Below, piece after piece: positions 2,324 to 51,304 of a stretch of DNA of 64,000 nucleotides. Both the position numbers and the translations under genes were made by a program. The notes below the pieces were generated by a model. The model saw nothing but the letters and a program-made list of their open reading frames with translations, was not told where the DNA came from and did no database searches. The stretch lies in IMG/VR virus record IMGVR_UViG_3300028886_000051. The stretch is one strand, 5' to 3'. Positions within the stretch are counted from its first letter, which is position 1, and each line of letters begins with the position of its first letter. Origin of the DNA: a virus. Lineage: Duplodnaviria; Caudoviricetes.

Positions 2324-2374
2324 ATATTTTTACCAAGAAACATAGATTTCTTCTGCTCTAGCAGAGAATATATA

Positions 2375-2572
2375 AATGAGGTAAAACGAACTGAAAACCT
2401 GAGATGGTGAAAAGGTAAAGATGAAGGCTGAAATTAACAAATCAGTCAACCGATGAGCGTATAGGCTGAAACTCATTTGAGAATATAATGCCTTGGAACA
2501 AACCTCGATCCTAACATGTAATGATGAGGAATAAGGATGCTCTCATAGAGTACAGAAATGAATGTACTTTTA
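2375..2572 (+). ncRNA. Possible structured non-coding RNA
   Basis: No ORF of 60 aa or more; stems aaatgag/ctcattt, ggctga/tcagtc, agagtaca/tgtacttt; follows a GAGAATA motif. Confidence 0.3.
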
Positions 2573-2584
2573 ATATGAAAAGAG

Positions 2585-2914
2585 GTGAAGTTTTTGAAAA
2601 TCGTACAAAATAAATCACATTATGATTTTAGAATAAAAATCGGAAATAACTATATAACTGTTGCAATGCTTCATCCGTGGCTATTTAGTAAACATAATCA
2701 TAAATACAATCTGTATTTTTATTATTATGGAGCTGAGTATGAGGAAGGAACATATGCCTGTTGTCATAGAAATGGGAACGAAAAAATGGTTGTATACGAA
2801 CAAGAAGATGAACTTCATAAAGAATTCCTTAAAAGAGTAACAAGGATAGTTTCAAAGAAGTTATATGTTATAGGAAGCTCAATACTAGAAGAAATAAAAT
2901 ATATTGAGGATTAG
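2585..2914 (+). CDS. Hypothetical protein
   Basis: ORF with SD GAGGTG; start may be the nearby TTG. Confidence 0.6.
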   Translation: MKFLKIVQNKSHYDFRIKIGNNYITVAMLHPWLFSKHNHKYNLYFYYYGAEYEEGTYACCHRNGNEKMVVYEQEDELHKEFLKRVTRIVSKKLYVIGSSILEEIKYIED

Positions 2915-2923
2915 GAGAATAAT

Positions 2924-3184
2924 ATGGCAGGATTTGTATCAAAACAACCAAATGGATTATATTGTAGATTTTCGACAGTCACGGATTGCCCTACGGCATG
3001 GAATATGACAAGAGAAGATTATATCAATATGAAAATGCAGGAAGCAAAAGAAGATGCTGAAGATGTATTGGATAATTATCTGAAGCCGTTTGATATGATG
3101 GTGGATATGTATTATCCAAACAATATGACAAAAGAGGAATTTGATAAATTCCTTGAAGAGACCGGATATAGTAAAGGAGAGTAA
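2924..3184 (+). CDS. Hypothetical phage protein
   Basis: ORF with SD. Confidence 0.7.
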   Translation: MAGFVSKQPNGLYCRFSTVTDCPTAWNMTREDYINMKMQEAKEDAEDVLDNYLKPFDMMVDMYYPNNMTKEEFDKFLEETGYSKGE

Positions 3185-3189
3185 ACCAT

Positions 3190-3450
3190 ATGAAGAAGAA
3201 AATTTTAGCAGTTGCATTAGGATTAACATTATGTTTTGGAATGACTAGATGTACCAATGTTGTCAATATTGATAAGACAATTAAGAGTCCGAATTCAAAA
3301 TTATGTGATTTCGAGGTTATTGAAACAAATTTTTATGGAGCAATTTTAGTAGACAAAAACACCAATGTTTTATATTACTGGATTCAGGGTGATAGTATGA
3401 CACCAATCTATAATTCAGATGGAACAGTTAAATTATACGATGGAGAATAA
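3190..3450 (+). CDS. Secreted/lipoprotein-like hypothetical protein
   Basis: Signal peptide MKKKILAVALGLTLC; VDKNTNVLY..MTPIYNSDG motif. Confidence 0.65.
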   Translation: MKKKILAVALGLTLCFGMTRCTNVVNIDKTIKSPNSKLCDFEVIETNFYGAILVDKNTNVLYYWIQGDSMTPIYNSDGTVKLYDGE

Positions 3451-3595
3451 TATGATAGATAATAAATTACGCAATCAATATAGACAAGCTGTTGGTGATT
3501 TAAAAACAGTATTTAAAGAAACTTATTTGTACAGATTTTGCGAAGAAGTTGTGAAGAGATTAAGTAAGATTTTGAGATAGTAAGGAGATTAATAT

Positions 3596-3904
3596 ATGAT
3601 ATATAAACATAGCAAAATAACAATGCCACGAATGAATTTATTTCAGAGTAATGCATTTAGATTGAAAAATGGAGCAATTTACGAATCTATTGAATTAGCA
3701 TATGTTTCAGAAGATGGTCTTGTAGAAAAAGAAATTACTAACTATGAGTATGATACGGATTCAAGAATCTTATATCTTCCAGATTATGAGAAAGAAAATG
3801 TATCTGTTAATCGAAGAGTTCTTATTAAATACGAAGTAGAAGTAGATTGTGTAAGACATTCAGATAGTTTTACAGATGGTAATTTTGTATCATTTAAGAT
3901 TTGA
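3596..3904 (+). CDS. Hypothetical protein
   Basis: ORF with SD. Confidence 0.65.
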   Translation: MIYKHSKITMPRMNLFQSNAFRLKNGAIYESIELAYVSEDGLVEKEITNYEYDTDSRILYLPDYEKENVSVNRRVLIKYEVEVDCVRHSDSFTDGNFVSFKI

Positions 3905-3926
3905 ATAATGTGATGGAGTTGATTAT

Positions 3927-4163
3927 ATGACAGAAGAATATTTTAATAGCCATGTTAAAAGATGTAAAAAGTGTGGTAACATTCCACAACTGGTTTCTGA
4001 AACAACTTTATTTGCAAAATCTAATGAACCAAAATACAAAATTATTTGTTGGAATTGCAAATGGGAAGATGGAGAATATAAAGATAATAGTAGAACAGGT
4101 TTGTGTAAAACACCTGAGTCTGCATTAAGAATTTGGAATAATAAGTTTGGAAGAGAGGATTAA
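3927..4163 (+). CDS. Lar-like (restriction alleviation) zinc-finger protein
   Basis: CxxCG...CxxC...WN pattern typical of the Lar family. Confidence 0.5.
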   Translation: MTEEYFNSHVKRCKKCGNIPQLVSETTLFAKSNEPKYKIICWNCKWEDGEYKDNSRTGLCKTPESALRIWNNKFGRED

Positions 4164-4165
4164 AT

Positions 4166-4441
4166 ATGAGTATTGATTTAGAGTTATATAGAAAAACTGT
4201 TAATTCAAGCGATAGAGTTTTTACAGGCAAGAAAGACATAAATGGAAGACCAATTAAAGTTGGTGATGTAATTGTCCCTGTTGGTGGCAAAGAACAGTAT
4301 TGTGTTAATTATTCAGAGGCAAAGAAGTGCTATTATGGATTGGGATTTGGAAATAAAATTCTTCCATTTAAGAAATTTTCAAAATGTGAAAATGTTGGTG
4401 TGGCAATTCGTAATGAAGATGCAAATAAAATTTTTAAATAA
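4166..4441 (+). CDS. YopX-like protein
   Basis: FTGKKDINGRPIKVGDVI motif. Confidence 0.55.
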   Translation: MSIDLELYRKTVNSSDRVFTGKKDINGRPIKVGDVIVPVGGKEQYCVNYSEAKKCYYGLGFGNKILPFKKFSKCENVGVAIRNEDANKIFK

Positions 4442-4581
4442 AAGGTAATCCTAAAAGTCATTGACAATAGGATAGAGGCTGTGATTCTTAGCCATCTGGC
4501 TTAAAAATAAGGCAGTAAACGGTTTGGTAAAAGACGAAGAATCCGAAGTTTCCTTTGGACGATAAGAAAGAGAGGTAAAAT

Positions 4582-4989
4582 ATGTATATTTGTTTAACAG
4601 TATTAATTGGATTATTAGGACTTTGCGTGGGAGCAATTATTGGACTTGGAATTGATTCTAAGATCAATCGTGATTACATACTTGGAATGAACAATATTAC
4701 TAAAGAATATTTAGAAAAAGTAATTGATTTAGAAAAAGGATATTTCAATACAATTGCGACAGATTTAGCAAAAGCAGTAGATGACATTAACAAAGTATAT
4801 GAAAAGCCAATTTGGAGAAAGACAGAAGAAGAATTACCACCATGTTCAGGATTATATTATGGCAAGATTAAAGGTAATCCACATGGAGAGAATGCTATGT
4901 GGAAAGTAGTATATAACGACAATGAATGGAGCTTATCTGGCTATCCTGATAATAAAGTAGAAATTAGTGAGTGGACAGAGATCTATTAA
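4582..4989 (+). CDS. Membrane-anchored hypothetical protein
   Basis: N-terminal hydrophobic helix. Confidence 0.6.
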   Translation: MYICLTVLIGLLGLCVGAIIGLGIDSKINRDYILGMNNITKEYLEKVIDLEKGYFNTIATDLAKAVDDINKVYEKPIWRKTEEELPPCSGLYYGKIKGNPHGENAMWKVVYNDNEWSLSGYPDNKVEISEWTEIY

Positions 4990-5058
4990 GAGAATATTAA
5001 TACGAAAGGAGCGAGAGATTTGCTGCAGCATTAAATCTGGATTTGCTCTGAGTAAGAA

Positions 5059-5820: not shown

Positions 5821-5890
5821 GAGAATAAGAATAATGAAAGGAGACGAGGTTCGTGTACACAAGAAGGAATTCCTTACTCCAAGTAATTAA

Positions 5891-6622: not shown

Positions 6623-6767
6623 AAGGAAATTTTGGTTTCTTGGCTTATCACGAAAACTATACAATATTTATGGACAAACAAGAGAATATAACAATGTAAT
6701 TACAATTAAAGAAAGGAAAAACGTTCACATGTGAGTAAAGCTGCGCAGCTACTATCGGTGAACAAAT

Positions 6768-7640: not shown

Positions 7641-7644
7641 AATC

Positions 7645-7687
7645 TCAACCTCTGAAACGCCTTAAAATCAAGGCTTTCAGAGGTTGA
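7645..7687. repeat. Motif-B inverted repeat AAASCCTT-N6/7-AAGGSTTT; related copies at 4496-4515, 18762-18802, 26570-26600, 26681-26705, 46707-46737
   Basis: tcaacctctgaaacgccttaaaatcaaggctttcagaggttga. Confidence 0.7.
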
Positions 7688-7900
7688 AAAAGCAAAGGAA
7701 AACCACGTTTCCTTCGAGGAGGTGATTGATTGGATACATCGTGTGAAACTTGTAAATGTAACACCTGTAAGATGAATGAAAATGGTGGCATTTATGGTGG
7801 ATGTTTTGATTGTGAAGATTGCAAAGAACAAGATTTACACTGTGAAGATTGTTCAATGTATGAATATGACAAAGATAGAATGAGTAATTAGGAGAAATTT

Positions 7901-8672: not shown

Positions 8673-8684
8673 GTAGGTGAGAAT

Positions 8685-9281: not shown

Positions 9282-9303
9282 AATATACACCTCCTTTATT
9301 TAG

Positions 9304-9392: not shown

Positions 9393-9436
9393 ATATATAG
9401 AAACACATATATTTAATTTAGAAAGGAGGATATTTT

Positions 9437-10774
9437 ATGAATATATTTTCATCTTATAAAGTCAAAATCAAACATTATAATCATATATTTGAACAAACAG
9501 TTGAGATATACAGAAATGCAGTATCCTTCTTTATAAATGTTTGTGATAAAGAATGGGATGTATTAGAATCATTAAAGAATCTTGAAAGATGTAGAAAGCT
9601 TGAAGAATTAACTTTACAGACAAAGAAAAATCAAAATCCTAAATATGATTTTAATGAAAAATTCTATAAGATGCCATCATATCTAAGACGTTCTGCAATA
9701 AATACTGCTACTGGATGTTATTCATCCTATTATTCCAATTTAAAGAATTGGGAAGAAAAATCTATTGGTAGTAAACCAAGATTGCAGTTAGACAGAAATG
9801 TTATGCCCACTTTATATAAAGATAATATGTATATTCGTACAGATGATAATACTGCAAAAATTAAAATCTTTCATAGAAATGATTGGGTTTGGCTAGATGT
9901 AGCATTAAATAATCAGGATGTAAAGTACATTCAAAATCATTGTAAATTCAAAAAGGAATATGTACCTACATTAAAGAAACAAGGTAAGTGTTGGTATTTA
10001 GTATTTCCTTTTGAAGATAAAGTTGAATTTCAAAAAGTAGATATTCAAGACCAAATAATATGTGCAGTAGATTTAGGTCTTAACAATAATGCTACTTGCT
10101 CTATAATGCAGTCTGATGGAACTGTCGTTGGAAGAAAATTTGTGAATCTTGCAACAGAAAAAGACCATTTATATAAAGCATTAAATAGAGTTAAGAAAAC
10201 ACAACAAAATGGCGCAAGAAGATGTCCTACTCTTTGGAAACATGTAAATGATTTGAATACTGATATTAGCAGAAAGACAGCAAAAGAGATTATAGATTTC
10301 GCAGTTTTATATAATGCTGATGTAATCGTATTTGAACATTTGGATACACAAGGAAAGAAAAATGGTAAAGAAAAACAGAAACTTGCGCTTTGGAGAAAAC
10401 AAGAAATACGAAAACTTGTAGAACATAAAGCACATATATTAGGAATTAGGATTAGTCATATATGTGCATGGAATACAAGCAGGCTGGCGTTTGACGGTTC
10501 TGGAAGAGTAGAAAGAGGTACTTATATTCAAAATGGAGTTGAAAAATACAATTACTCTATTTGCACTTTTCCAAATGGTAAACAATATCATTGTGACTTA
10601 AATGCCAGTTATAATATCGGAGCAAGATATTTTATACGAGAATTTTTAAAATCCGACTCAGTGATGAGAAGGTTGCCTAGTCAGACAAAAGATTCTGATT
10701 ATGGTACGGGAACAACACGCACCTTGTCTACGTTAATTAGGCTTAATGCGGATTTATGTGGCAATGCTGTATAA
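9437..10774 (+). CDS. tnpB: TnpB RNA-guided endonuclease
   Basis: RuvC triad AVDLG, VFEHL, CDLNASYNI. Confidence 0.9.
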   Translation: MNIFSSYKVKIKHYNHIFEQTVEIYRNAVSFFINVCDKEWDVLESLKNLERCRKLEELTLQTKKNQNPKYDFNEKFYKMPSYLRRSAINTATGCYSSYYSNLKNWEEKSIGSKPRLQLDRNVMPTLYKDNMYIRTDDNTAKIKIFHRNDWVWLDVALNNQDVKYIQNHCKFKKEYVPTLKKQGKCWYLVFPFEDKVEFQKVDIQDQIICAVDLGLNNNATCSIMQSDGTVVGRKFVNLATEKDHLYKALNRVKKTQQNGARRCPTLWKHVNDLNTDISRKTAKEIIDFAVLYNADVIVFEHLDTQGKKNGKEKQKLALWRKQEIRKLVEHKAHILGIRISHICAWNTSRLAFDGSGRVERGTYIQNGVEKYNYSICTFPNGKQYHCDLNASYNIGARYFIREFLKSDSVMRRLPSQTKDSDYGTGTTRTLSTLIRLNADLCGNAV

Positions 10775-11033: not shown

Positions 11034-11258
11034 ATGGGTAAAGTTGTAGATATGAGTAATTTTGATCCGTTATTTGATAATTTGGAAAAGTACGTGAATA
11101 AACAAGGGTGTACTCTTGGTAAAGATGCTGAGAGGTTACAAGAATTATTACATTCAATTCAGTATTGTTATATACATGGAGTATTAACAGAGAGTCAAAA
11201 TGAATCAGCTTGTAAAAAATTTAGAAAACAGTTTCAGAAAGCTTTATATGAGAAGTAA
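11034..11258 (+). CDS. Hypothetical protein
   Basis: ORF with SD; stop overlaps site at 11257. Confidence 0.65.
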   Translation: MGKVVDMSNFDPLFDNLEKYVNKQGCTLGKDAERLQELLHSIQYCYIHGVLTESQNESACKKFRKQFQKALYEK

Positions 11259-11293
11259 GAATGAAGCATTTCCTTAGGAAAGGAGAACAATAA

Positions 11294-15546: not shown

Positions 15547-15592
15547 AGTAACAAGAATTTCAGATTTTATTGGTTTTGAGAAAGGAGAATAT

Positions 15593-16549: not shown

Positions 16550-16598
16550 CTTCACAAGAAAGCAACATATCCTTGGATTATAGAAAAGAGGTGATTAA

Positions 16599-17078
16599 GT
16601 GTTAGTACCTGCAATTCTGTATAAAGAGCAGATAAAGAAAGAATTTCAGAAATATTATTATACAACAGATATGATGTATGAAACTGGTTGCATGTGTAAT
16701 TGGAGTCCTGAAATTGCAGAATGTCCAAATGAGAGTCAATTTCAATATGCAATAATTGATAAGAACGAAAAACTCATTGGTTACTTAGGGTATTCAGTAG
16801 ATTGGTATGCGTCTAAAGCGTATAACTTTGGATTATTTTCATTCGACAGAGGAAATATTTTGGTTGGTAGGGACGTATTCGATAAATTAGAAGAACTGAT
16901 TAAAACATTACATAGAGTTGAATGGAGAGCTGTTGGTGGGAATCCTGCTTGTAGAGGTTACGATAGCTTTATCGAGAGACATAATGGAACGAAACATGTT
17001 CTAAAAGATTCAATTAAGGACAAGAATGGTGAATATCACGATGATATTATTTATGAGATTGTGAGTGGTGGAGAATAA
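16599..17078 (+). CDS. GNAT/RimJ-RimL-like acetyltransferase
   Basis: KLIGYLG...LHRVEW..GNPA...GEYHDDIIYEI pattern. Confidence 0.6.
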   Translation: MLVPAILYKEQIKKEFQKYYYTTDMMYETGCMCNWSPEIAECPNESQFQYAIIDKNEKLIGYLGYSVDWYASKAYNFGLFSFDRGNILVGRDVFDKLEELIKTLHRVEWRAVGGNPACRGYDSFIERHNGTKHVLKDSIKDKNGEYHDDIIYEIVSGGE

Positions 17079-17099
17079 TACATTGGAGGTGAAACCGTA

Positions 17100-17309
17100 A
17101 TGGATGATTATAAGAATTATATTGTAATTGGAAATGAATATAACGGGTTAGGAGAATCTGCCGATCCTGATAGTTGGGACAGTGTAAAATATTATTTTAA
17201 CACAGAAGATGAAGTAAAAGATTTTATTGATAGAAATCCATCGTTTTTATTTCATTTAAAAGCAATTTACAAAGTAGAAGAATTAGATATTAATAGTTTT
17301 ATTCATTAA
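17100..17309 (+). CDS. Hypothetical protein
   Basis: ORF with SD. Confidence 0.6.
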   Translation: MDDYKNYIVIGNEYNGLGESADPDSWDSVKYYFNTEDEVKDFIDRNPSFLFHLKAIYKVEELDINSFIH

Positions 17310-17454
17310 AGGTTAAAATAACAAGAATCCAATCTTTCATTGGAAAATTTTGTAAAAATAACAACATAAATGGTAGTTGCAAATGCCATAAAATAAAAGA
17401 AAGGAAAAGATAATCCTAGGTAAAAGGTTATGTACATAACACTCAGGTATATGA

Positions 17455-18744
17455 GTGAACCCAATTTACAATGAGTATCTTACATTCTTGCGAGATACGA
17501 CCAAACAGCCATTAGAAGATCTGAAAGAAGGCTACTTTTGGCTAGATAAATCAATTATTAAAGGATTTGATAAGCAAGGAAATGAACATAAATTCTATCG
17601 AGTGAAGATTGAAAATTCGCTTGAAAGATTGGATTGCATCAAATTGAAATCCTACGACAATATATCAGATGTGGATTTAGCAAGTTGGCAAGATTTAATC
17701 GAATTACAGAAAGAACATCTAACGCAGCTTGAAGCTGATTCATTAGAACTAATCAAAGAAAAGACAGAGAAATTTAATACATATACTTCAATAATTCCTG
17801 TTTCTATGGGTAAGGATTCAATGCTTACCTGTCATCTAGTCAGAAAATTATATCCAGAAACCAAAGCAATATTCAATAATACTTCACTTGATTGTGCTGA
17901 TACATACAGAATGGTTAAGACTTTCCCTAATTGTGAGATTATGAATCCCGAGAAGGGATTTTACCAGTATATTAAAGAACAGAATATTATATTTAATAGA
18001 ATTTCTCGTGGTTGTTGTAGAATCTTCAAAGTAGGTGAAATGGTTAGGCGTTTAGACCATAACAAACCATATTTAATGTGGATGGGTATGCGAAACGAAG
18101 AATCTAATACTAGAAGCGGATATCAAGATGAATGGATAAATGAGCAGGAATGGGGTAAGACCTGTTGGCAAGGTATTCTTCCTATTAGAAAATGGTCAGA
18201 AATGGATGTATGGCTTTATACAATTTGGAAGAATGTGCCTATTTGCTCAAAATATAAAAAGGGATATGCTCGTCAAGGCTGTAATATTGCGTGCCCATTC
18301 TATACGAAGTCTACTTGGATTTTGGACAAGTATTGGTATCCACAGGCTTATGAGAGATGGAGAAACATCTTAAAAGAAGACTTCATTGCAAATAAGAAAT
18401 GGATAATCATGAACTGCACCATTGATGAATATCTCACACAGGCTTGGAATGGTGGAACATTCAGAGATGAACCAACCGATGAGGTTATTCAGGAATTTGC
18501 TGAGTACAATGGATTGAATGTTGGTGACACAAAAGTAGCAAGACAATATTTTAATAAGTATTGTGATGAGTGTGAAAAGAGAATAAAAGATAAAACAACG
18601 CTGGCAATGAATATGAAATTCCATGGAAGAGATGTGTCGAAGTTCTTGTGTAAGAAATGTTTCAAAAAATTATACGAGATGGATGATGATAAGTGGAATA
18701 TGTATGTTGAGTCATTCAAAAGAGACGGTTGTGCGTTGTTTTAA
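17455..18744 (+). CDS. PAPS-reductase-family (PP-loop, DndC-like) protein with C-terminal Zn finger
   Basis: VSMGKDS, RGCCRIFK, GMRNEES..RS, PIRKWSEMDVW, RQGCNIACP. Confidence 0.8.
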   Translation: MNPIYNEYLTFLRDTTKQPLEDLKEGYFWLDKSIIKGFDKQGNEHKFYRVKIENSLERLDCIKLKSYDNISDVDLASWQDLIELQKEHLTQLEADSLELIKEKTEKFNTYTSIIPVSMGKDSMLTCHLVRKLYPETKAIFNNTSLDCADTYRMVKTFPNCEIMNPEKGFYQYIKEQNIIFNRISRGCCRIFKVGEMVRRLDHNKPYLMWMGMRNEESNTRSGYQDEWINEQEWGKTCWQGILPIRKWSEMDVWLYTIWKNVPICSKYKKGYARQGCNIACPFYTKSTWILDKYWYPQAYERWRNILKEDFIANKKWIIMNCTIDEYLTQAWNGGTFRDEPTDEVIQEFAEYNGLNVGDTKVARQYFNKYCDECEKRIKDKTTLAMNMKFHGRDVSKFLCKKCFKKLYEMDDDKWNMYVESFKRDGCALF

Positions 18745-19018
18745 CAGAGAATAAATAATTAGAGGTCACAAAAGCCTTGAAAAATAAGGCTTTTGAAACC
18801 TCAAAAGCCGATGAATTTTTTCTTTCTTTTGGACAGATTGGAGGTGTGAAATGAAAAAGTATTATAGACAAGCAATCGCATTTCTTTTAGTATGGTTCTG
18901 TAGTGGTGTAACGATGTATTCATATCAAGCAGAAAATAAAATACTTGGAATTACTTTTACACTTTTAAGTTTTTTATATTGGTTCATTATAGACAAAGAT
19001 GATTAGGAGAATAAATAC

Positions 19019-19773: not shown

Positions 19774-19974
19774 ATGAAAGCATATAAATGTGATATTTGT
19801 GGTGAATATTGCGATTATTCTCATGATATCTATGGTAACATAATGGTGCGAACTAAAAAGAAAAATTTTAAGAAAATGAAATACATAAACGAATTATGTG
19901 ATAGTTGTTTTGAGGATTTACAGAGATATATGCAAGATAAATATTTTGAGCATATGGATAAATATTCAGAGTAA
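19774..19974 (+). CDS. Small zinc-finger protein
   Basis: CDICG...LCDSC. Confidence 0.6.
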   Translation: MKAYKCDICGEYCDYSHDIYGNIMVRTKKKNFKKMKYINELCDSCFEDLQRYMQDKYFEHMDKYSE

Positions 19975-20017
19975 AGATTCGTTTCTTTTGAAATTTTAAC
20001 AGATAGGAGTGATATAA

Positions 20018-21873: not shown

Positions 21874-22003
21874 CAACATATAGGAAGTATTCTGAAAGAG
21901 TAATCAATCAGATAGTGGTCACAGGTTCATGACCAACATACATAAAAGTCTATGTAAAGAGAAATGGTTCTCATGAATTATCGGTTTCCTTTGGAGGTGA
22001 CAA

Positions 22004-22944: not shown

Positions 22945-23074
22945 AAGGAGAATAACTATATGTAGTCGATTGGTAAAATTTATATACTATATATAATGCC
23001 ATAAAAGAGATAAATCACAATATATAGTAATAAAAGTACCAAGAAATTTCGATTTTTTGTGAGGAGGTGAAATC

Positions 23075-24687: not shown

Positions 24688-24909
24688 ATGAGTAATTTAA
24701 AGCAAAAATTAACAAAAGGTGGCGCAACAGCAGTTATTGTCATTACAATTTTGGCATTATGTTATGGACTTAGTTGGATTGTTACATGTGGAATAATCAA
24801 GCTTATTACAATGTGCTTTGGTTTGACATTTAAATGGTCTATTGCGACTGGTATTTGGTTGATTATCTGCATTTTAAAGTCAGTTTTCAATGTAACAGTA
24901 AAGAAATAA
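24688..24909 (+). CDS. Small membrane protein
   Basis: Two hydrophobic segments. Confidence 0.65.
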   Translation: MSNLKQKLTKGGATAVIVITILALCYGLSWIVTCGIIKLITMCFGLTFKWSIATGIWLIICILKSVFNVTVKK

Positions 24910-24961
24910 AAGCCGAGTAAACTGACATTTCTTGACCAAATTGGAGACAAGGAGGAATAAA

Positions 24962-26524: not shown

Positions 26525-26779
26525 AGAATATATATAAGTAGCAAGAAACCTGCGTTTCATTGGTTTCGCAAACCTAGTATTTACAATGGTTTCAGAGGTC
26601 AAAAATTTCAAAAATGCTCAAATCGAGCAAAAATCCCTAATTTTCAATGATTTTTAGAGAATAATAAAAATGAGGTGTTGAAAACCCTTATAAATCAAGG
26701 GTTTTACAGTATCAATATCAAGAAACAGAGAATATAAGAATAGTAAGAAATCACTGTTTCTTTGGAAAATTAAAAAAGA

Positions 26780-39842: not shown

Positions 39843-39904
39843 AATCCAAGTAAAGACGGATTTCTCGTCCGTCATTTATATGAAATGAAAGAGAGGTATA
39901 AAAT

Positions 39905-40459
39905 ATGGTTTATGGAGTATTTGGTGGTTGTTATAGTGATTGGTATGTAGTTGGTTATTTTAACAATCGTCAAGATGCGGATAAATATTGCTGTGTATGT
40001 GGTGATGGTGATTATTATGTAAAACCGTTAAAAGATTTAACTGATGAAAAAGATTTATCAAAAGTATCATTAAAATACCATCATAAAGTTTTATTTGATT
40101 ATAAAGATGATGAAAACAGATGGGTTATGAGAGAAGAACCTGAAAGATACAATTGCTATATTGATAATGATTTAAGATGTAATAGTGTAAGACAAGGAAC
40201 ACTATGTAGAAATAATTGGGTATGTTTTAGTATAAATATTGACCATGATGATAGAAATTTAGCAGAAAAAATTGCTCAAGACTATTTAGCTGAACTTCGT
40301 TCTTATGGAGATGGAAAAATTTATGAAAAGAATATTGAATTGATGAATGATAAATTCGCAGCACCATTCAAGGAAAAAGAGAGAATAAGAAAAGAAGAAG
40401 AAATTAGACAAAAAGAAATTGCAGAATTAGAAAGATTAAAGGCTAAGTATGATGCATAA
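39905..40459 (+). CDS. Hypothetical protein (bracketed by sites 39849/40458)
   Basis: ORF with SD. Confidence 0.7.
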   Translation: MVYGVFGGCYSDWYVVGYFNNRQDADKYCCVCGDGDYYVKPLKDLTDEKDLSKVSLKYHHKVLFDYKDDENRWVMREEPERYNCYIDNDLRCNSVRQGTLCRNNWVCFSINIDHDDRNLAEKIAQDYLAELRSYGDGKIYEKNIELMNDKFAAPFKEKERIRKEEEIRQKEIAELERLKAKYDA

Positions 40460-40496
40460 TAAACGACAGTTTCTTGCGAAGATTAGAGGTGATTAA

Positions 40497-40778: not shown

Positions 40779-40818
40779 CAAGAAGCCATTATTTTATGTG
40801 GAGATTAGGAGGTAGAGA

Positions 40819-41082: not shown

Positions 41083-41135
41083 ATTCACAAAAATCTAAAC
41101 TTTCATTGGGATTTAAAAAATAGGAGGATTAAGAT

Positions 41136-44876: not shown

Positions 44877-44894
44877 CTATATATAATAAAGGAA

Positions 44895-45779: not shown

Positions 45780-45783
45780 TGAG

Positions 45784-46041: not shown

Positions 46042-46791
46042 TTATATGTATATGATAAATGATAACCATATAGATTTATATAACGTTACAGTAGGCGATT
46101 GTATAGATTTATATGAATTTAAAGGTATAGTTTCAATTCTTAGTGATGGAATGTTGCTTGGATTTGAAAAAGATAGCTGTTTTGAGGGTAAATAGGGTAA
46201 AAATATGACAATATGTACAGATAAATGTACTTCTTGTGTTAATGGAGAGTTAATACAGAAGTCAAGGGCAGATATAAAAATACGTTGTGAAGCAAAAGAT
46301 AAACTTCTACCTTATGGGTGTAAAGTAGAATGTGAATTTTTTGAAAAGAAAAAGGGAGAATAATATGGGTGTAAATATAATTATATTAATTTTAATTGGT
46401 ATTTTTCTTTTAAATTGTTTATTTTGTTTTGCAATGTGTAAAGCAGCATCAGATTTTGATGATATTTCAGATTTAAAAGAAAGTGAGGAAAATAATTATT
46501 TTACCAATAATGACAACACATTCATTAGCTAGAGAATTATTGGAAAAGCCTGACGGATTCGTGACTGCAACTATTGAAGGTAAAGAATTTGCAGTCACAG
46601 GATTCCGAAGAATGGCAACTTGTGCAAATTATGATGATACAAGTTTATATTGGACTTTAGTGTTAAGTGAATGCGAAAATAATAAAAATAAAAAAGTATG
46701 ATGTGTAAAACCCTTGTAAAATAAGGGTTTCAGAGGTTTAAAATTACAATGAAAGGTTGATTTCTTGTGGAATTAAGAAAGGAGATAAAAT

Positions 46792-49017
46792 TTGAAAGTA
46801 ATTAAAAGAGATGGTCGAAAAGTTGATTTTGACCGTAACAAAATTATAAAAGCGGTTCTTGCTGCTTTCAATGAGGTAGATGGTGAAATTACCACAGAAG
46901 CAAAAAGAAAGGCTACAGTAATTACAAATCACATTGAATCATTAAATAAGAAGTCTATGAATGTTGAAGGTATTCAGGACATTATTGAAACGATGCTTAT
47001 GGATGGTAAGCGCAAAGATGTTGCTAGAGCATTTGTGATTTACAGAAATGACAGGACGAGAGAAAGAGAAAAACATAGCGACATTGTAAAGCGTGTTATG
47101 AAAAGAGTAAATGCAACAGATGTTCAGAACGCTAATGCTAATGTGGATGAAAAGAGTTTTTCTGGTAGAGAAAAAGAAGCGTCTGCCGATGTAGGAAAGA
47201 CCATTGCATTAGATTACGGTGGATTAAGCAAAGAGGTCGCACAGGCTCATAAAGATATGCTTATATATCAACATGATTTGGAAAAAGCAATTTATGGAGT
47301 GCATAATTGTCTTAATCTTGACTTTGGAGAAATTTTTACATACGGATTTAAGACACGCAATGGTGATGTAAGACCTCCAAAATCTTTCAGTACAGCTTGT
47401 CAGTTGGTTGCAGTAGCTTTTCAATGTCAGAGTCAGGTTCAGTTTGGAGGAGTTGGAAGTATTCATTTAGACTATGACTTAGCTCCTTTTGTAAAAATGA
47501 GTTTTTCAAAACACTTTAAAGATGGACTTAAATGGGTTGAAAATGAATCAGAAGATTATATTAATCATGTTCCAAAGTCTATTGGTATAGAAGATTTAGA
47601 AGCTAAATCACATAAAAAAGCATATGAATATGCTATGACAATGCTTGAAAATGAAGGTCAACAGTCAGCACAAGGATTATATCATAATTTAAATACTCTT
47701 GAATCACGTCAAGGCTCGCAAGTGCCATTCACTAGCATCAATCTTGGACGAGATACTTCACCAGAGGGAAGATTGGTTACTAAATGGATTATGAATGCAA
47801 GTATTGATGGTATTGGTGAACATCATTTAACAAGTATTTTTCCTATTAGTATTTTTCAATACAAAAATGGTGTTAATGCAAAACCAGGAGATCCAAATTA
47901 TGATTTGAAACAATTGGCATTAAAATCTATGTCAAAAAGAATTTATCCTAACTGGTGCAACGGAAATTGGTCACAGGCACATGAAGATGAAGATGATCCA
48001 GATACATTTTTCTCAACAATGGGCTGCCGTACTTTAGTTGGATATGACCGTCATGGGTTAGGTTATATTCGTCAGGGAAGAGGTAATAATGTACCAAATA
48101 CAATTATTTTGCCTAAGCTTGGCATTGAATATGGTATTTGTCTAGGCAAAAGAGATAAAGCAGATTTAGATGGATTTTGGAACGGTCTTGAAAATGCTTT
48201 ACAGTTATGTGAAAAAGGATTACTTGAAAGGTATGAATTAATCAAAAAACAGTCACCAAAATCAGCACCTTTCATGTATCAGAATCACACTATGAAAGGT
48301 TCAAGAGATTGTACTGAGACAGTAGAAAATGCAGTGAAACATAATACTCTTGGAATTGGATTGATTGGCGTTGCTGAAATGTGTGTTGCCTTATTTGGTA
48401 AAAATCATGCAGAGGATGAAAATATACACGCATTTGCATTATCAGTAGTTAAGAGAATATATGATTATGCAAAAGAAGCCAGTGAAAGAAATGATTTGAA
48501 TTTTGGATGTTATTTTACTCCGGCTGAAGGACTCTGTAGAACAGCATTAAAGGCATTAAGAGAACAATATGGTGTGATTCCAAATGTTACAAGCCATGAA
48601 TATCTTACTAATTCAGTGCACGTGCCAGTATGGCAGAAAGTTTCTATTTATGACAAATTAAGAATTGAAGCTCCATTTACAAAGTATGCAACATCAGGAT
48701 GTATCACTTACATAGAACTTGAATCTACTTTTGTACAGAATACAAAAGCTATAGAAGATATTATTGATTATGCTTTTAATGAGTTAGATATTCCTTATTT
48801 AGCATTTAATTTCCCAATTGATAGTTGTTTAGACTGTGGATACCAAGGTGAATTTAATAATGAATGCCCTCAGTGTGGAAGCAAAAACATTCAACAGTTG
48901 AGACGTGTGACAGGATACCTCACTACGGACTACCGCAATTTTAACGAAGGAAAACAAGCAGAAGTAGAAGAAAGAGTAAAGCATAGTGCATATACAAGCT
49001 TTGGAGATGAGAAATAA
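46792..49017 (+). CDS. nrdD: Anaerobic ribonucleoside-triphosphate reductase
   Basis: ATP cone VIKRDG, MGCRT, TPAEGL, CxxC..CxxC, RRVTGYL. Confidence 0.95.
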   Translation: MKVIKRDGRKVDFDRNKIIKAVLAAFNEVDGEITTEAKRKATVITNHIESLNKKSMNVEGIQDIIETMLMDGKRKDVARAFVIYRNDRTREREKHSDIVKRVMKRVNATDVQNANANVDEKSFSGREKEASADVGKTIALDYGGLSKEVAQAHKDMLIYQHDLEKAIYGVHNCLNLDFGEIFTYGFKTRNGDVRPPKSFSTACQLVAVAFQCQSQVQFGGVGSIHLDYDLAPFVKMSFSKHFKDGLKWVENESEDYINHVPKSIGIEDLEAKSHKKAYEYAMTMLENEGQQSAQGLYHNLNTLESRQGSQVPFTSINLGRDTSPEGRLVTKWIMNASIDGIGEHHLTSIFPISIFQYKNGVNAKPGDPNYDLKQLALKSMSKRIYPNWCNGNWSQAHEDEDDPDTFFSTMGCRTLVGYDRHGLGYIRQGRGNNVPNTIILPKLGIEYGICLGKRDKADLDGFWNGLENALQLCEKGLLERYELIKKQSPKSAPFMYQNHTMKGSRDCTETVENAVKHNTLGIGLIGVAEMCVALFGKNHAEDENIHAFALSVVKRIYDYAKEASERNDLNFGCYFTPAEGLCRTALKALREQYGVIPNVTSHEYLTNSVHVPVWQKVSIYDKLRIEAPFTKYATSGCITYIELESTFVQNTKAIEDIIDYAFNELDIPYLAFNFPIDSCLDCGYQGEFNNECPQCGSKNIQQLRRVTGYLTTDYRNFNEGKQAEVEERVKHSAYTSFGDEK

Positions 49018-49523
49018 TGTTACATATTGCAGGTGTGAATTATGAATCTATCGCAGATTCTGACGGTGTTTCATGTGTGATTTTCTTTAGCGGTTGTAAA
49101 CATTTTTGCAAAGGATGCCATTCAAAAGATACATGGGATTTCAATTATGGAATCCCTGTATCAGATGAATTAGCAATAACAATCAATAATGAAATAGATA
49201 AAAGACCATTCTTATCAGCTCTTGTATTGAGTGGCGGCGATCCAATGTATTCATCGTCAGAAGTATTAGAATTTATATCAAAAATCCACATACCCAACAA
49301 TACAATTTGGTGTTATTCTGGATTCTTAATCGAAGAAATTCAACAAAATTCAGAAATGAAAAAATTACTAGACAAGTGCAATATATTAATAGATGGTCAA
49401 TTTGAGATTGAAAAAAGAGTGATTAATTCTGGGTTTTATGGTAGTAGTAATCAAAGAATTTGGAGAAAAAATAAAAATGGTGAGTGGTTTATAGATTCTT
49501 CACGCTCTCCACATATTCAGTAA
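49017..49523 (+). CDS. nrdG: Anaerobic RNR activating enzyme (complete)
   Basis: CKHFCKGC, SGGDP, IWCYSGF, IDG, GSSNQR. Confidence 0.92.
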   Translation: MLHIAGVNYESIADSDGVSCVIFFSGCKHFCKGCHSKDTWDFNYGIPVSDELAITINNEIDKRPFLSALVLSGGDPMYSSSEVLEFISKIHIPNNTIWCYSGFLIEEIQQNSEMKKLLDKCNILIDGQFEIEKRVINSGFYGSSNQRIWRKNKNGEWFIDSSRSPHIQ

Positions 49524-49644
49524 GTATCTTATTGATGAGATTGGTTAATGAACGTCCATCTTTCTTAGCGAGTTCTTCTAATTTAGCTTTCATGTCTTTG
49601 TTCATATTAACAAGTACACCAGTTTTATCTTTACCGACAGCCAT
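49489..49644 (-). CDS. Ribbon-helix-helix regulator
   Basis: GVLVNMNKDMKAKLEELAKKDGRSLTNLINKIL; SD GGAGGTG. Confidence 0.8.
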   Translation of the reverse strand: MAVGKDKTGVLVNMNKDMKAKLEELAKKDGRSLTNLINKILTEYVESVKNL

Positions 49645-49666
49645 ATTATCACCTCCGTTTGAGAGA

Positions 49667-49742
49667 ATAATAACATATAGAACAGTTATAGTCAAGTTAT
49701 ATAACTTTCTGCTTGACAAAGGTTATATAACGGTTATATAAT
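49667..49742. promoter_or_regulatory. Divergent promoters with GTTATATAAC operator palindromes
   Basis: TTGACA(49713)-18-TATAAT; TTGACT-17-TATTAT on minus strand; GTTATATAAC at 49696 and 49722, near-copy at 49733. Confidence 0.72.
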
Positions 49743-49767
49743 CTAATCAGAAAAGAGGTGAAACAAT

Positions 49768-50982
49768 TTGAAGGTACAAAGATGTGAGCAGCATAATATA
49801 AAGTATGGAACTGATTTTTATAAATTTATTGATGAAATGTGTTTCAAGTCAAAGAATTTATACAATTATGCAAATTATATTATTCGTCAAGAGTTTATAA
49901 ATAATAGAAATTGGATTCAATATAATCAGTTATTTCATTTAGTTAAAGAATCCGAACCTTATAAGGATATTGGCAATAATACAGGTCAAGGTACTTTAAG
50001 AATTTTAGACAAAGCTTGGAAATCTTTTTTTAAGTCAATTAAAGATTGGAAGAAGAATCCAAATAAATATTTAGGTAGACCTAAACTTCCAAAATATTTA
50101 AAAAAGGATGGACGTTTTGTACTGTCCCTTGATAGCAACAAAGTGAAGTTGAAAGATGAATATGTATATTTTGCATGGAAGCCATTTAAACCATACAATA
50201 ATATGTTTAAGACAAACGCACAAGAGAGAATATTACAATGCAGATTCATTCCTAGATGTAGGAAGTATGTAATGGAAATCGTCTATGAAATCGAAGTACC
50301 AGACGTTTCAGAAACTTCTGATAGAGTAGCTGCTATTGATATTGGAGTTGATAATTTCATAACTATGGTAAACAACATTGGTGAAAATCCAATAGCTGTT
50401 AAAGGTGGAGTTATTAAGTCAATTAATCAGTTTTACAATAAACAGAAAGCAAATATTCAGTCAGAGTTGAAGAAAGTTAACGGAAAAGATTGGTCGAACA
50501 AGTTACAGAAACTTACAGACAAGCGGTATGAAATGATTAAATATCAGATGCATTGTATAAGTAAGTATGTAGTTGATTGGTGTGTCTTATATGGAATTGA
50601 CACATTGATTGTAGGACACAACGATGAATGGAAACAAAATAAACAAGGTATGCAGAACTTTACTTACATTCCATATGAACTATTTATTCAGATGCTTGCA
50701 TATAAATGTGAGAACAACGGAATTAGATTCATAGAAAATGAGGAAGCATATACTTCTGGAACATCATTTCTTGATAATGAAGATCCTGTAAAAGAGAACT
50801 ACAATAAGGAACGCAGAGTTCATAGAGGATTATTCATTGCAGATTGTGGAAAAAAGATAAATGCAGATGTAAATGGAGCATATCAAATATTAAAGAAGGT
50901 AATTCCTGAAGCTTTTAGCAAGGGAATAGAGGGTGCAGGTTCACACCCAACAATTATTAACTTGGCTATGCTGAGAGCGTAA
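49768..50982 (+). CDS. tnpB: TnpB-family endonuclease (rearranged RuvC-II, no Zn finger)
   Basis: IDIGVDN, ENEEAYTS, NADVNGAYQI. Confidence 0.88.
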   Translation: MKVQRCEQHNIKYGTDFYKFIDEMCFKSKNLYNYANYIIRQEFINNRNWIQYNQLFHLVKESEPYKDIGNNTGQGTLRILDKAWKSFFKSIKDWKKNPNKYLGRPKLPKYLKKDGRFVLSLDSNKVKLKDEYVYFAWKPFKPYNNMFKTNAQERILQCRFIPRCRKYVMEIVYEIEVPDVSETSDRVAAIDIGVDNFITMVNNIGENPIAVKGGVIKSINQFYNKQKANIQSELKKVNGKDWSNKLQKLTDKRYEMIKYQMHCISKYVVDWCVLYGIDTLIVGHNDEWKQNKQGMQNFTYIPYELFIQMLAYKCENNGIRFIENEEAYTSGTSFLDNEDPVKENYNKERRVHRGLFIADCGKKINADVNGAYQILKKVIPEAFSKGIEGAGSHPTIINLAMLRA

Positions 50983-51016
50983 TGTAAAGGGGATTATAAA
51001 ACCCCATGAATTCCGT

Positions 51017-51304
51017 ATTTCCTTCCCTGAGAAAACTATCTGGTTGTATACAGGGTTTAAATGGGATGATATTATGTGTTCTTTTGCAGGATTACAAGCT
51101 GATCACGTTGTATCAAATGAGAAAGATATTGAAGCGTGGGAAAAGAGAAGAGAAATAATTTCGCTATGCGATATTCTCGTTGACGGGGAATATATAGATG
51201 AGCAGAAAGACCTTACATTGAAGTGGAGGGGTTCAAAAAACCAAAACTGTATTGATGTAAAGCAATCTCTTGCTCAGAATAAAATTGTTTTATATTGTGA
51301 TTAA
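51017..51304 (+). pseudogene. nrdG: 3' remnant of a second, divergent nrdG allele
   Basis: ISFPEKTIWLYTGF...DILVDGEY...WRGSKNQ; lacks the N-terminal CxxxCxxC. Confidence 0.85.

Follow-up and report, generated by a model that had tools for sequence, protein, structure and literature searches.

Position-labelled dyad sites in an SPbeta/phiCD211-like phage of gut Clostridia as candidate addresses for cassette exchange

The accessory genes of a large temperate phage of Clostridia in the gut (146-kb, SPbeta/phiCD211-like) are separated by many copies of a short dyad site, raising the question of whether these sites are regulatory elements or points at which genes are exchanged between related phages. 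A 64,000-nucleotide stretch of this phage (the window; IMG/VR record IMGVR_UViG_3300028886_000051) had been described in a sequence-only reading, which listed 21 copies of an AWGAAW-N6-TTTCHT palindrome and proposed an addressable cassette-exchange system. All 21 copies were recovered (14 exact, the other 7 one-mismatch variants; Table 1), and the strict pattern has 14 distinct matches in the window compared to 0.98 expected from shuffles (0/100 reach 14). The reported G at right-arm position 9 (17/21 sites) and the G+C richness of the spacers (61/126 vs. 31% for the window) were reproduced. The spacers are also all different as claimed, but this is the chance expectation for ~40 random 6-mers and has no weight alone, and the claimed common orientation carries little weight, given that the site is close to palindromic and many copies score well on the opposite strand too. 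The array does occupy positions 2335 to 51023 but is not limited to them: a further ~10 sites precede the window and a few are in the late arm, giving ~30-31 sites in the early arm and ~40 per genome. The model phage SPbeta has 29 sites of the same type (TAAAA-N6-TTTTA).

Table 1. Dyad sites in the window, named by their 6-bp spacers, and their occurrence in related genomes (G) and loci (L).
Site	Position	Strand	Match	Setting	Occurrence and homology limits
CATAGA	2335..2352	+	exact pattern match		29 other unique contexts; 9 left-flank, 11 right-flank types; identical map position in G001, G002, G004, G005
CCGAAG	4537..4554	+	exact match		collinear slot also in G001, both flanks differing
Weak degenerate extra site, additional to the 21	5030..5047	+	position-weight-matrix score 12.2	between two genes	
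TTTTGG	6624..6641	+		immediately 3' of Dam-like methylase gene stop	G001, G002, G004, G005: right flank homologous, left flank not; L015 BLAST match stops at 6626
ACCACG	7696..7713	+		3' of terminator-like hairpin	6/6 whole genomes; four unrelated left flanks, several right flanks
GAAGCA	11257..11274	+	exact pattern match	preceding stop within left arm	four relatives; 9 left-flank, 8 right-flank types; L015 and L029 BLAST matches stop at 11257
TTCAGA	15553..15570	+		right arm degenerate	relatives have TTCAGG at the collinear position
GCAACA	16556..16573	+			collinear in G002, G004, G005; L029 BLAST match begins at 16574
CCAATC	17323..17340	+	exact pattern match	5' of PAPS-reductase-like gene	collinear in G002, G004, G005; 7 left-flank, 8 right-flank types
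TTTTTC	18811..18828	+	exact pattern match	3' of terminator-like hairpin	spacer kept in relatives despite different arm bases; 10 left-flank, 10 right-flank types
GATTCG	19970..19987	+		stop codon within left arm	collinear in G002, G004, G005
TATCGG	21973..21990	+	exact pattern match	Shine-Dalgarno 2 nt past right arm	21 other contexts; 13 left-flank, 14 right-flank types; L032 BLAST match begins at 21992
TTTCGA	23041..23058	+			6/6 whole genomes; BLAST matches from four loci begin at 23040
CTGACA	24916..24933	+			6/6 whole genomes, flanks unrelated; BLAST matches begin at 24909 and 24919 or stop at 24933
CCTGCG	26543..26560	+	exact match		only listed spacer not found again in the fetched relatives
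TCACTG	26745..26762	+	exact pattern match	last before replication core	collinear in G001, G002, G003, G005
GACGGA	39849..39866	+		first past replication core	28 other contexts; 8 left-flank, 13 right-flank types; many BLAST matches stop at 39854 (left-arm end)
CGACAG	40458..40475	+			G003, G004; L014 and L017 BLAST matches begin at 40466, within spacer
CCATTA	40780..40797	+			also in G001, both flanks differing
CTAAAC	41089..41106	+			BLAST matches in several loci stop at 41085 or begin at 41092
GGTTGA	46749..46766	+	exact pattern match	5' of nrdD	9 other contexts; 8 left-flank, 6 right-flank types
TCCGTA	51006..51023	+	exact pattern match	junction of TnpB cassette and nrdG 3' remnant	within intact nrdG in G001, G002, G005; L027 and L043 homology stops at 51011-51012 (left-arm end)

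The extended consensus of the sites, AAAnT-MMC-A[AGT]GAAW-N6-TTTC[TCA]T-TKG, corresponds to a 9-6-9 layout in which the inner GAAA/TTTC is specific and the outer bases are loose. The two half-sites are alike in base preference (position 1, A12 G5 T4; its mirror, A10 G6 T5), and the variable mirror positions of the two arms do not co-vary, which makes this a protein-type dyad rather than an RNA stem. The placement at gene boundaries also held, with 20/21 sites in intergenic gaps of the + strand gene model and the remaining site 2 nt past a stop. Stop codons overlap or immediately precede the left arm at 11257, 19970, 40458, 6624 and 40780, a start codon usually follows the site within 14-40 nt, and the replication core is free of sites (none between 26745 and 39849). 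The cassettes are promoterless ORFs, each site being wedged between a stop codon and a ribosome-binding site.

Such placement would also suit a purely regulatory array of operators or stoperators, terminators, RNA hairpins or translational elements with no recombination role, whose overlap with mosaic junctions would arise merely because both occupy gene boundaries. The sites are numerous, intergenic and directly 5' of ribosome-binding sites, some come after terminator-like hairpins, and the stoperators of mycobacteriophages are distributed similarly (PMC9283540, PMC6550527). Against this reading, the stem that the arms could form would have 4-6 weak pairs and shows no co-variation; no sigma-70-type -35/-10 was found at a fixed distance from the sites, and at 21973 the adjoining Shine-Dalgarno leaves no room for a promoter. 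These points, together with the conservation and junction patterns described below, make a purely regulatory role highly improbable.

Comparison with related phages revealed a map of addresses. Spacers are conserved locus by locus, with 267 cross-genome site pairs having a common spacer compared to 5.6 expected, and the common spacers are fully collinear between relatives (31/31, 27/27, 23/23, 22/22 and so on). Within each genome compared, every spacer occurs only once, and the 80 loci around the recombinase gene discussed below contain 642 sites with just 66 distinct spacers. Among the 267 pairs, 120 have no homology in either 120-nt flank and 78 have one homologous flank, so that sites persist as islands between two unrelated flanks, which a regulatory array would not predict. 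The stoperator or operator alternative that had been raised alongside the cassette-exchange proposal fails to explain the locus-specific conservation of the spacers.

Free spacer drift, which would have spoken against an address function, was not seen. In 141 unique pairs with both flanks homologous, picked regardless of spacer, the spacers diverge by 0.9% compared to 5-7% in the homologous flanks and 11-18% at the variable arm bases; this locus-specific centre, ~6-fold better conserved than its flanks, is a further argument against a purely regulatory array. Spacer conservation exceeds that of flanking 6-mers at 23/25 addresses and, as judged from these divergences, the spacer centres are under purifying selection. 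Spacer G+C is 45% vs. 31% for the genome. The boundary between arm and centre is kept sharp by a depletion of A where the spacer begins (13/139) and of T where it ends (8/139).

Breakpoints of gain, loss and replacement between relatives were found inside the sites, as had been predicted. The 40-120 nt beside the sites are often unrelated between relatives and reassort freely, with up to 19-20 left-flank types, 17 right-flank types and 42 four-gamete quartets at single addresses. In pairs with one homologous flank, the variable bases of the left arm track the left flank and position 18 onward tracks the right flank, leaving only the GAAW-spacer-TTTC core in common; the junction is therefore inside the site core and not just anywhere in the gap, again contrary to a purely regulatory role. 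Linkage across the 24-bp site is near nil (the probability of the same right flank is 0.26 when the left is the same vs. 0.18 when it differs), compared to 0.49 vs. 0.05 within cassettes of 0.2-4 kb. The within-cassette linkage being only 0.49, exchange also occurs away from the sites. The BLAST-defined breakpoint density per base in the sites is only ~2x that of other intergenic gaps, a noisy measure because just 17-26% of the genome aligns between relatives. Additionally, position 16 in the arm is hypervariable and shows no linkage to either flank, a pattern not expected if exchange were clean and cleavage points fixed.

A candidate enzyme lies outside the window. The absence of a tyrosine recombinase from the window was confirmed, and two PF00589 genes were found elsewhere in the genome, of which one, TR1 (326 aa; profile-search E 1.8e-26), maps 9.4-10.4 kb upstream of where the window begins. 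Aligned with XerA, XerH and XerD, TR1 has R, K, HxxR, H and Y all in place and is thus Xer-like and apparently catalytically intact. Its best NCBIfam models are XerC and XerS, with both scores far below the equivalog cut-offs; TR1 is therefore not an orthologue of XerH or XerS. Its closest prophage-borne relatives are in Ruminiclostridium, Mediterraneibacter and Thomasclavelia. In genomes whose enzymes belong to the TR1 clade (62-100% identity), the arms read A[AGT]GAAW...TTTC[TCA]T. In three genomes with divergent recombinases at the syntenic locus (G003, G006 and G009), ATGAAA or WYGAAA is paired with arms of the TTTCAA or TTTCAT type; G006 and G009 have no addresses in common with TR1-clade genomes and G003 has 4-7. 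For the G009 homologue, XerS is the top-scoring model, and the very divergent G003 enzyme may lack the usual N-terminal domain. In G006, a TnpB insertion interrupts the recombinase gene, yet ~25-35 well-formed sites are present; the disruption may be a recent loss.

The change of arms together with the recombinase points to a phage-encoded reader of the sites. This bears on the possibility that a host Xer recombinase acts on them, as for IMEX elements and the dif modules of Acinetobacter, with the phage tyrosine recombinases serving dimer resolution or integration-related roles instead. The dif-like geometry with its 6-bp centre and the persistence of the G006 sites without an intact phage enzyme would fit a host enzyme, and host XerC/XerD do recombine pdif sites with identical or near-identical spacers in dif modules (PMC13141974). 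The arms, however, shift between phage lineages in concert with the phage-encoded recombinase and are symmetric, which XerC/XerD sites are not, and a host enzyme is accordingly considered unlikely.

With moderate confidence, the sites are proposed to be dif-like core sites of TR1, a phage-encoded Xer-type tyrosine recombinase, used for in-register cassette exchange. Two recombinase monomers would occupy the two 9-bp arms, reading the inner GAAA/TTTC specifically and the outer bases loosely, with strand exchange across the 6-bp centre. If matching centres are needed, the ~40 different centres of one genome could not recombine mutually and the genome would stay intact, the partner being a site with an identical centre, contributed by a relative that co-infects or by a prophage already resident. 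Each site would thereby act as a crossover point that carries a positional label and leaves gene boundaries intact; a single crossover would recombine two genomes in register and two crossovers would swap the cassette between two addresses. Genome comparison establishes the address map, the in-site junctions, the flank reassortment, the selection on centres, and the presence and apparent catalytic intactness of TR1 and its co-variation with the arms by lineage. From these patterns we infer that TR1 binds and cuts the sites and that identical centres are mechanistically required. Every computational check proposed in the sequence-only reading and run here came out favourably, and its interpretation is overall partly supported.

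In a competing explanation, the arms bind a non-catalytic protein, such as a stoperator-like silencer or an MrpR-like regulator, and general or annealase-mediated recombination uses the site as micro-homology. Intergenic regions that are otherwise unrelated would then have no conserved sequence but the 14-24 bp of the site, with matching spacers mattering solely by making the identical stretch contiguous. Short-homology recombination at the sites predicts the address map, core junctions, flank reassortment and constrained spacers equally well, and the phage encodes an SSB, an exonuclease and an ERCC4-type nuclease. A precedent for shuffling at regulatory motifs is provided by the PeSLs of T4-type phages (PMC2839356, PMC4122927) and one for a recombinase-fold repressor on a repeated element by SPbeta (PMC10516654), the G006 sites are retained despite a broken recombinase gene, and the tight placement between stop codon and Shine-Dalgarno is a possible regulator position. 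On the other side, TR1 keeps all the catalytic residues that MrpR does not, and a domain search found no MrpR-family domain in this genome. A 14-20 bp core is very short for homologous recombination to erase linkage almost completely, and a regulator leaves the A/T depletion at the spacer edges and the raised spacer G+C unexplained. Separate candidate operator arrays (12-bp palindromes with 31-bp spacing) exist in the genome, and both the layout and the bases of the site are similar to those of difH (PMC3325230, PMC5241119). Micro-homology at sites bound by a non-catalytic protein is possible but, on this evidence, less likely. Exchange by TR1 remains the preferred reading.

In engineered Cre/Flp cassette exchange, heterospecific lox or FRT sites with equal arms and different spacers do not cross-react. 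The proposed TR1 system would similarly swap a segment between two different sites in register without self-deletion, differing from that two-site laboratory design as an apparently natural array of dozens of sites with 9-bp arms and 6-bp spacers. In integrons, a tyrosine recombinase captures cassettes at one attI by way of attC sites that are folded, single-stranded and variable in sequence. Like integrons, the proposed system would combine a tyrosine recombinase with single-gene cassettes that lack promoters and have one recombination site apiece, but here the sites are duplex-type dyads at fixed positions and cassettes would be replaced in place. The description as a heterospecific, position-labelling array passed the computational tests proposed for it; the integron-like label fits poorly, there being no attI, single capture point or folded attC.

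Among known systems, the array comes closest to the pdif-bounded dif modules on plasmids of Acinetobacter, in which accessory genes are bounded by dif-like sites with two recombinase arms and a 6-bp spacer, recombination has been seen where the two spacers are identical or differ by one mismatch, crossovers map within sites, and exchange of a single module between replicons is proposed through cointegrate formation and resolution at same-spacer sites (PMC13141974, PMC6449649). The present array differs in its phage rather than plasmid replicon, in its symmetric arms and likely single phage-encoded Xer-like protein compared to host XerC plus XerD, in sites that all face one way rather than alternating C/D and D/C, and in having ~40 unique-spacer sites of conserved order rather than a handful with spacers often repeated within a plasmid. 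The promoterless cassettes and the tight site placement described above are a further difference. Inverted arms, a 6-bp centre, specific inner bases and loose outer bases are also found in XerH-difH and XerS-difSL (PMC5357621); in XerH-difH, the central region is 6 bp long and specific reading applies to the inner 5 bp (PMC5241119). The difH core, WTGAAAA-N6-TTTTCAA (PMC3325230), is nearly the present motif, especially the G006-type arms, with the A/T run of each arm one base shorter here, and TR1 aligns full-length with XerH. Those systems, however, have one FtsK-controlled dimer-resolution site per chromosome, compared to dozens of heterospecific sites here.

The promoter-early stem-loop (PeSL) motifs of T4-type phages are likewise short intergenic motifs that bound variable accessory genes, indels and replacements, but are promoter-plus-terminator units, all alike and thought to recombine homologously between any two copies (PMC2839356, PMC4122927). 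At the present sites, in contrast, there is neither a promoter consensus nor a co-varying stem, and every copy has its own conserved 6-bp label that would limit partners to the same position. As in Cluster A mycobacteriophage stoperators, dozens of short intergenic sites occur genome-wide, oriented with transcription; stoperators, however, are asymmetric 13-14-bp sites of a monomeric repressor with no variable locus-specific centre (PMC9283540, PMC6550527). Within the same phage group, SPbeta MrpR-SPBRE also ties a tyrosine-recombinase-fold protein to a repeated intergenic element (PMC10516654), but the catalytic residues of MrpR have been lost, and the ~10 promoter-embedded SPBRE copies that it binds are unlike the present sites in sequence.

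The 21 dyad sites (AWGAAW-N6-TTTCHT) listed in the sequence-only reading were recovered: 14 distinct sites match the strict pattern, where about one would be expected, and the rest are one-mismatch variants at the listed positions. Their alignment resolves a 9-6-9 dyad with invariant inner GAAW and TTTC and loose outer bases, a layout that agrees with Xer/Cre-type core sites, in which two inverted arms enclose a centre of 6-8 bp. Both half-sites have equivalent base preferences and mirror positions do not co-vary, as is typical of a duplex DNA site bound by two copies of one protein and not of an RNA stem. A reading of the sites as RNA hairpins or terminators was rejected for weak stems and lack of co-variation; changes at mirror positions are independent of each other, and A-C, T-C and T-T oppositions are common. 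The GAAW-N6-TTTC arrangement occurs 36-45 times per genome, compared with 8-27 for N5 or N7 spacing, and a weight matrix applied to the whole genome found about 31 early-arm sites, nearly all intergenic, and a few late-arm sites. The sites lie between the upstream stop codon, often within the left arm, and the next ribosome-binding site. Spacers have a G+C content of 45% compared with 31% for the genome, their first base avoids A and their last base avoids T. A plain 4-mer dyad count gave AT-rich noise and revealed no motifs in distant relatives.

No conserved sigma-70-type -35/-10 elements were found at a fixed distance upstream of the sites, and promoter-like matches were no commoner than in shuffles; a PeSL-type promoter-terminator reading was rejected, with no promoter hexamers at fixed distance and no co-varying stem. 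The stoperator alternative also appears not to hold, since these dyads are symmetric around a variable centre, unlike the asymmetric 13-14 bp stoperators bound by an immunity repressor.

The window corresponds to part of an IMG/VR virus record of 145,752 bp that is estimated to be 85% complete. Encoded within it are a DnaE-type polymerase, primase-helicase, NAD ligase, NrdD, SSB, an exonuclease and an ERCC4-type nuclease, along with a TnpB and a large serine recombinase. By tblastn, the polymerase is 43% identical to that of Clostridioides phiCD211-like phages and 34-37% identical to those of large Bacillus siphophages, and a megablast search of GenBank phages with its gene returned no match. 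Genomes of Mediterraneibacter, Ruminiclostridium and Thomasclavelia, and contigs as long as 0.77 Mb, carry relatives of TR1, an Xer-like tyrosine recombinase of 326 aa that is encoded upstream of the window and is the candidate enzyme of the sites. Combined, the polymerase affinities and these recombinase relatives mark the phage, to judge from its genes, as large, temperate and SPbeta/phiCD211-like, with gut Clostridia as its hosts. The cassettes of the window carry three Dam-like methylases, one N6/N4 methylase, PAPS-reductase-like and Thg1-like enzymes and many ORFans, cargo of the type involved in evasion of host defences, as well as PcfJ-like and two TnpB-type proteins. Additionally, a 445-aa ORF with a weak match to a Cas12f1-like TNB domain (E 1.8e-4, below cut-off) may be a second, divergent TnpB-like gene.

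A polymerase scan retrieved 61 loci, from 99% down to 33% identity. The genomes fetched for comparison were G001-G005, all complete and about 185 kb long, and the more distant G006 and G009. While the polymerases are 96-99% identical, alignment at the DNA level covers only 17-26% of the genome. Common spacers nevertheless link 267 pairs of sites across genomes (5.6 expected), with both 120-nt flanks non-homologous in 120 of these pairs and one flank homologous in 78. The order of common spacers is the same for every genome pair (e.g., 31/31, 27/27, 22/22), apart from two exceptions that look like chance matches, and no spacer was found repeated within one genome. All but one of the 21 originally listed spacers were found again in other contexts, with 3-14 flank types each. 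The excess of shared pairs and their collinear order thus bear out the conservation of spacers per locus that the sequence-only reading had proposed to look for; a map position labelled by one 6-bp spacer is termed an address below, and the segment between two addresses a cassette.

The same reading had asked whether gene gain and loss breakpoints fall within the sites. BLAST matches to the window repeatedly start or stop there (see table), and per base the breakpoints are 7-fold enriched at sites, an excess that falls to about 2-fold when other gaps are the reference; these breakpoints are noisy, given that 17-26% of the genome aligns, and were replaced by site-centred flank tests. Where a pair has just the left flank in common, identity remains 0.8-0.95 as far as left-arm position 5 and has fallen to background by position 16-18, whereas in pairs sharing only the right flank it climbs from background at position 18. 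Therefore, the arms travel with their own flanks and the core alone is common, placing the junctions between arm positions 5 and 17, inside the core.

A recombinase scan added 80 loci, which hold 642 sites but only 66 distinct spacers. At one address, represented in 54 genomes, 17 left and 15 right flank types occur in 35 combinations, and at another 19 and 3 flank types occur in 32 combinations with 42 four-gamete quartets. Across the 24-bp site, the right flank is predicted by the left at 0.26 vs. a baseline of 0.18, compared with 0.49 vs. 0.05 across whole cassettes (0.2-4 kb). As far as genome comparison allows, these results establish the sites as position-labelled crossover points that partition the accessory genome.

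Spacers do not drift freely between close relatives; free drift would have spoken against the original proposal. Among 141 unique pairs with both flanks homologous, selected blind to the spacer, divergence was 0.9% in spacers, 5-7% in flanks and 11-18% at variable arm bases; spacer positions 7-11 were almost invariant, and the spacer was the better conserved part at 23 of 25 addresses. Pairs with one true flank had identical spacers in 45 of 46 and 33 of 38 cases, pairs sharing only a repeated motif having been set aside by eye from examples; this fits recombination that would require matching centres. The constraint on spacers, together with their G+C content and edge bias, is unlike what a mere operator spacer would show, and a purely regulatory array is very unlikely.

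Individual rearrangements were also visible. The TnpB (IS605 OrfB) of the window ends in a hairpin abutting the left arm of site 51006, and L027 (of G006) and L043 have this TnpB together with its hairpin and left arm but continue into another spacer and right arm, so that the element behaves as a cassette or targets the arm/spacer boundary. At the same site, the window keeps only the 3' half of one nrdG allele, along with a complete second nrdG, and in G001, G002 and G005 the TCCGTA site lies within an intact nrdG; a site-like sequence within a gene served as a junction.

As the sequence-only reading had stated, the window holds no tyrosine recombinase: a genome scan found two PF00589 genes, both outside it. 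One of these, TR1, matches PF00589 at E 1.8e-26 (93 bits, cut-off 27). In alignment with XerA, XerH and XerD, it retains the box I R, the GKG-turn K, HxxR, the LGH His and the C-terminal Tyr, the last one residue later than in Xer proteins, and these catalytic residues are kept in five TR1-clade sequences and G009. The alignment with XerH spans residues 8-308; an AlphaFold2 model from a 5-row alignment had a mean pLDDT of 44.7, too low to be used for the two-domain C-clamp fold or in a structure search. The best NCBIfam scores (XerC 115.6 bits, cut-off 335; XerS 110.4 bits, cut-off 267) lie far below the equivalog cut-offs, so TR1 is Xer-like and not an Xer orthologue. More than 1500 relatives were found at E <1e-20, some on contigs of 0.5-0.77 Mb, which points to integrated prophages. 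A prophage in the Mediterraneibacter hominis NSJ-55 chromosome (L221) encodes a 44%-identical recombinase, with a GAAA-N6-TTTC site about 600 nt upstream of the gene; its spacer, TTTAAC, recurs in the phage group, where it labels the most frequent address upstream of TR1, a coincidence that may be chance. The serine recombinase of the window was set aside as the site enzyme because large serine integrases use long sites with a 2-bp crossover, not a 6-bp spacer.

The phage motif differs from difH (WTGAAAA-N6-TTTTCAA; PMC3325230) by one A/T pair per arm. The XerH-difH system likewise has a 6-bp centre, with the inner 5 bp of the arms read specifically and the outer bases via the backbone (PMC5241119).

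Within the phage group, TR1 is present in G001, G002, G004 and G005 at 62-85% identity, with the same arm type. G003 carries a very divergent PF00589 gene at the syntenic locus, G009 a 31%-identical recombinase, and in G006 (90% polymerase identity) a TnpB insertion has split the syntenic tyrosine recombinase gene. The arms of these three are of ATGAAA or WYGAAA type on the left and TTTCAA or TTTCAT on the right, the divergent or split recombinase of G003 and G006 occurring together with altered arms. G003 has 4-7 addresses in common with TR1-clade genomes, and G006 and G009 have none; the 25-35 sites that G006 nonetheless retains have an arm variant of their own and share no spacer with the window. 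A strict link in which the presence of TR1 equals the presence of sites fails, as G003 and G006 have sites without a TR1 orthologue.

Site-specific exchange at the sites by the phage Xer-like enzyme is the best explanation of these data and one we hold with moderate confidence, its enzymology being what we infer from site geometry and similarity to difH, from an intact Xer-like gene, and from arms that vary in step with recombinase lineage. Counting against it are the survival of sites in G006, the incomplete linkage within cassettes and the hypervariable arm position 16 (the base after TTTC), which differs in 14% of near-identical copies compared with 1% at its neighbours and tracks neither flank. 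The strongest alternative is that a non-catalytic protein binds the sites and recombination through short homology occurs there, as proposed for PeSLs; we regard it as possible, although distinctly less likely.

Among described systems, the closest is that of the dif modules of Acinetobacter plasmids, which are bounded by pdif sites with 6-bp spacers, have crossovers within the sites and recombine between sites with identical or one-mismatch spacers, with exchange of single modules proposed to proceed through cointegrates (PMC13141974). The phage modules are similarly bounded by dif-like sites with crossovers inside them, but the replicon is a phage, the sites per genome are many more, the spacers are unique with a conserved order, and all sites point the same way relative to genes instead of alternating in orientation as C and D modules. 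Whereas dif modules have asymmetric XerC/XerD arms and use host enzymes, the phage arms are symmetric and the enzyme is likely phage-encoded. Action of a host Xer enzyme, as on dif modules, is very unlikely here; the phage-encoded recombinase co-varies with arm type. The integron-like character suggested earlier does not stand: integron-integrase models score only 19-24 bits, and unlike integrons, with intI, an attI capture site and folded attC sites, the phage has sites at fixed map positions and not in an array downstream of attI. Membership of the MrpR-SPBRE system of SPbeta was rejected, as neither PF22823 nor PF22822 matches anywhere in the genome and SPBRE, derived from SPbeta, is an unrelated sequence; TR1 showed no BLAST similarity to MrpR.

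SPbeta itself (NC_001884; L005, L006) has 29 exact TAAAA-N6-TTTTA sites in its early arms compared with about 1.3 expected (16 vs. 0.83 and 13 vs. 0.47 by arm), and at least nine have as their TAA the stop codon of the upstream annotated gene. Many coincide with the ends of annotated genes, and for some the only annotation is a stem-loop. YopP, a core protein of SPbeta (PMC10516654), matches the PF00589 profile and is the natural candidate for the partner recombinase of these sites. For SPbeta-like phages, including SPbeta with its orphan YopP, natural recombinase-mediated cassette exchange by a phage-encoded Xer-like enzyme on heterospecific dif-like sites is a proposal on which we are evenly divided. 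Dozens of such sites would serve as position labels for the enzyme, crossovers between co-resident relatives would be confined to gene boundaries and always in register, and the outcome would be a programmed, sexual-like reshuffling of accessory genes (methylases, likely anti-defence genes) with genome order kept.

The usual account of phage mosaicism is that illegitimate or relaxed homologous recombination occurs rarely and that selection then favours junctions at gene boundaries. In these phages the DNA itself marks the junctions, and fixed, ordered, labelled sites account for the swap points of accessory genes in one large and abundant family of gut and Bacillus phages. Should the Xer-like enzyme of the phage prove to carry out the exchange, the array would be the first of natural heterospecific sites through which a virus exchanges cassettes in register, the equivalent in phages of plasmid dif modules, and a ready-made orthogonal site set for genome engineering. 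The idea is directly testable, as SPbeta of Bacillus subtilis 168 has the same architecture.

Coordinates of features (window positions unless another sequence is named)
Feature	Coordinates	Remark
Window in IMG/VR record	59027-123026 of the record	reverse strand
Single-base differences from genome record	14814; 48624	
Repeated BLAST match starts/stops at sites	23040; 24909-24933; 26543; 39854; 40466; 41085-41092	
Further BLAST match ends at sites	11257; 6626; 16574; 21992; 51011	
ACTATATATAGT-type palindromes, two copies	2280-2322	a short way upstream of site 2335
ACTATATATAGT-type palindromes, three copies	22955-23028	a short way upstream of site 23041
GGSTTTCAGAGGT hairpin	7648-7684	upstream of site 7696
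GGSTTTCAGAGGT hairpin	26587-26599	downstream of site 26543
GGSTTTCAGAGGT hairpin	46725-46737	upstream of site 46749
445-aa ORF	9437-10774	
Complete second nrdG	49017-49523	
TnpB (IS605 OrfB) with hairpin and site 51006	49768-51023	
3' half of nrdG allele	51006-51304	
Large serine recombinase	52542-54320	
4.7-kb late ORF	69719-74395	minus strand; beyond the window
TR1 gene	9.4-10.4 kb upstream of window	early arm
Corresponding TnpB region in G006	L027, ~16884-18140	
Split recombinase gene of G006	L128:7372-10142	
GAAA-N6-TTTC site of prophage	L221 7397-7410	

Two further types of repeated element accompany the sites. The 12-bp palindromes of ACTATATATAGT type, at 31-bp spacing, are also present upstream of sites in relatives; with 13 matches compared with 3.4 expected, they resemble an operator or promoter array distinct from the sites. 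A conserved terminator-like hairpin with GGSTTTCAGAGGT occurs three times in the window, at equal spacing where it precedes a site. Lastly, two sites (spacers TGCGTC and TATTCG) lie inside the late ORF, 23 bp apart in G001 and 600-740 bp apart in G000 (the phage of the window), G004 and G005, with unrelated flanks; the pair appears to mark a slot in a structural gene into which modules fit in frame.
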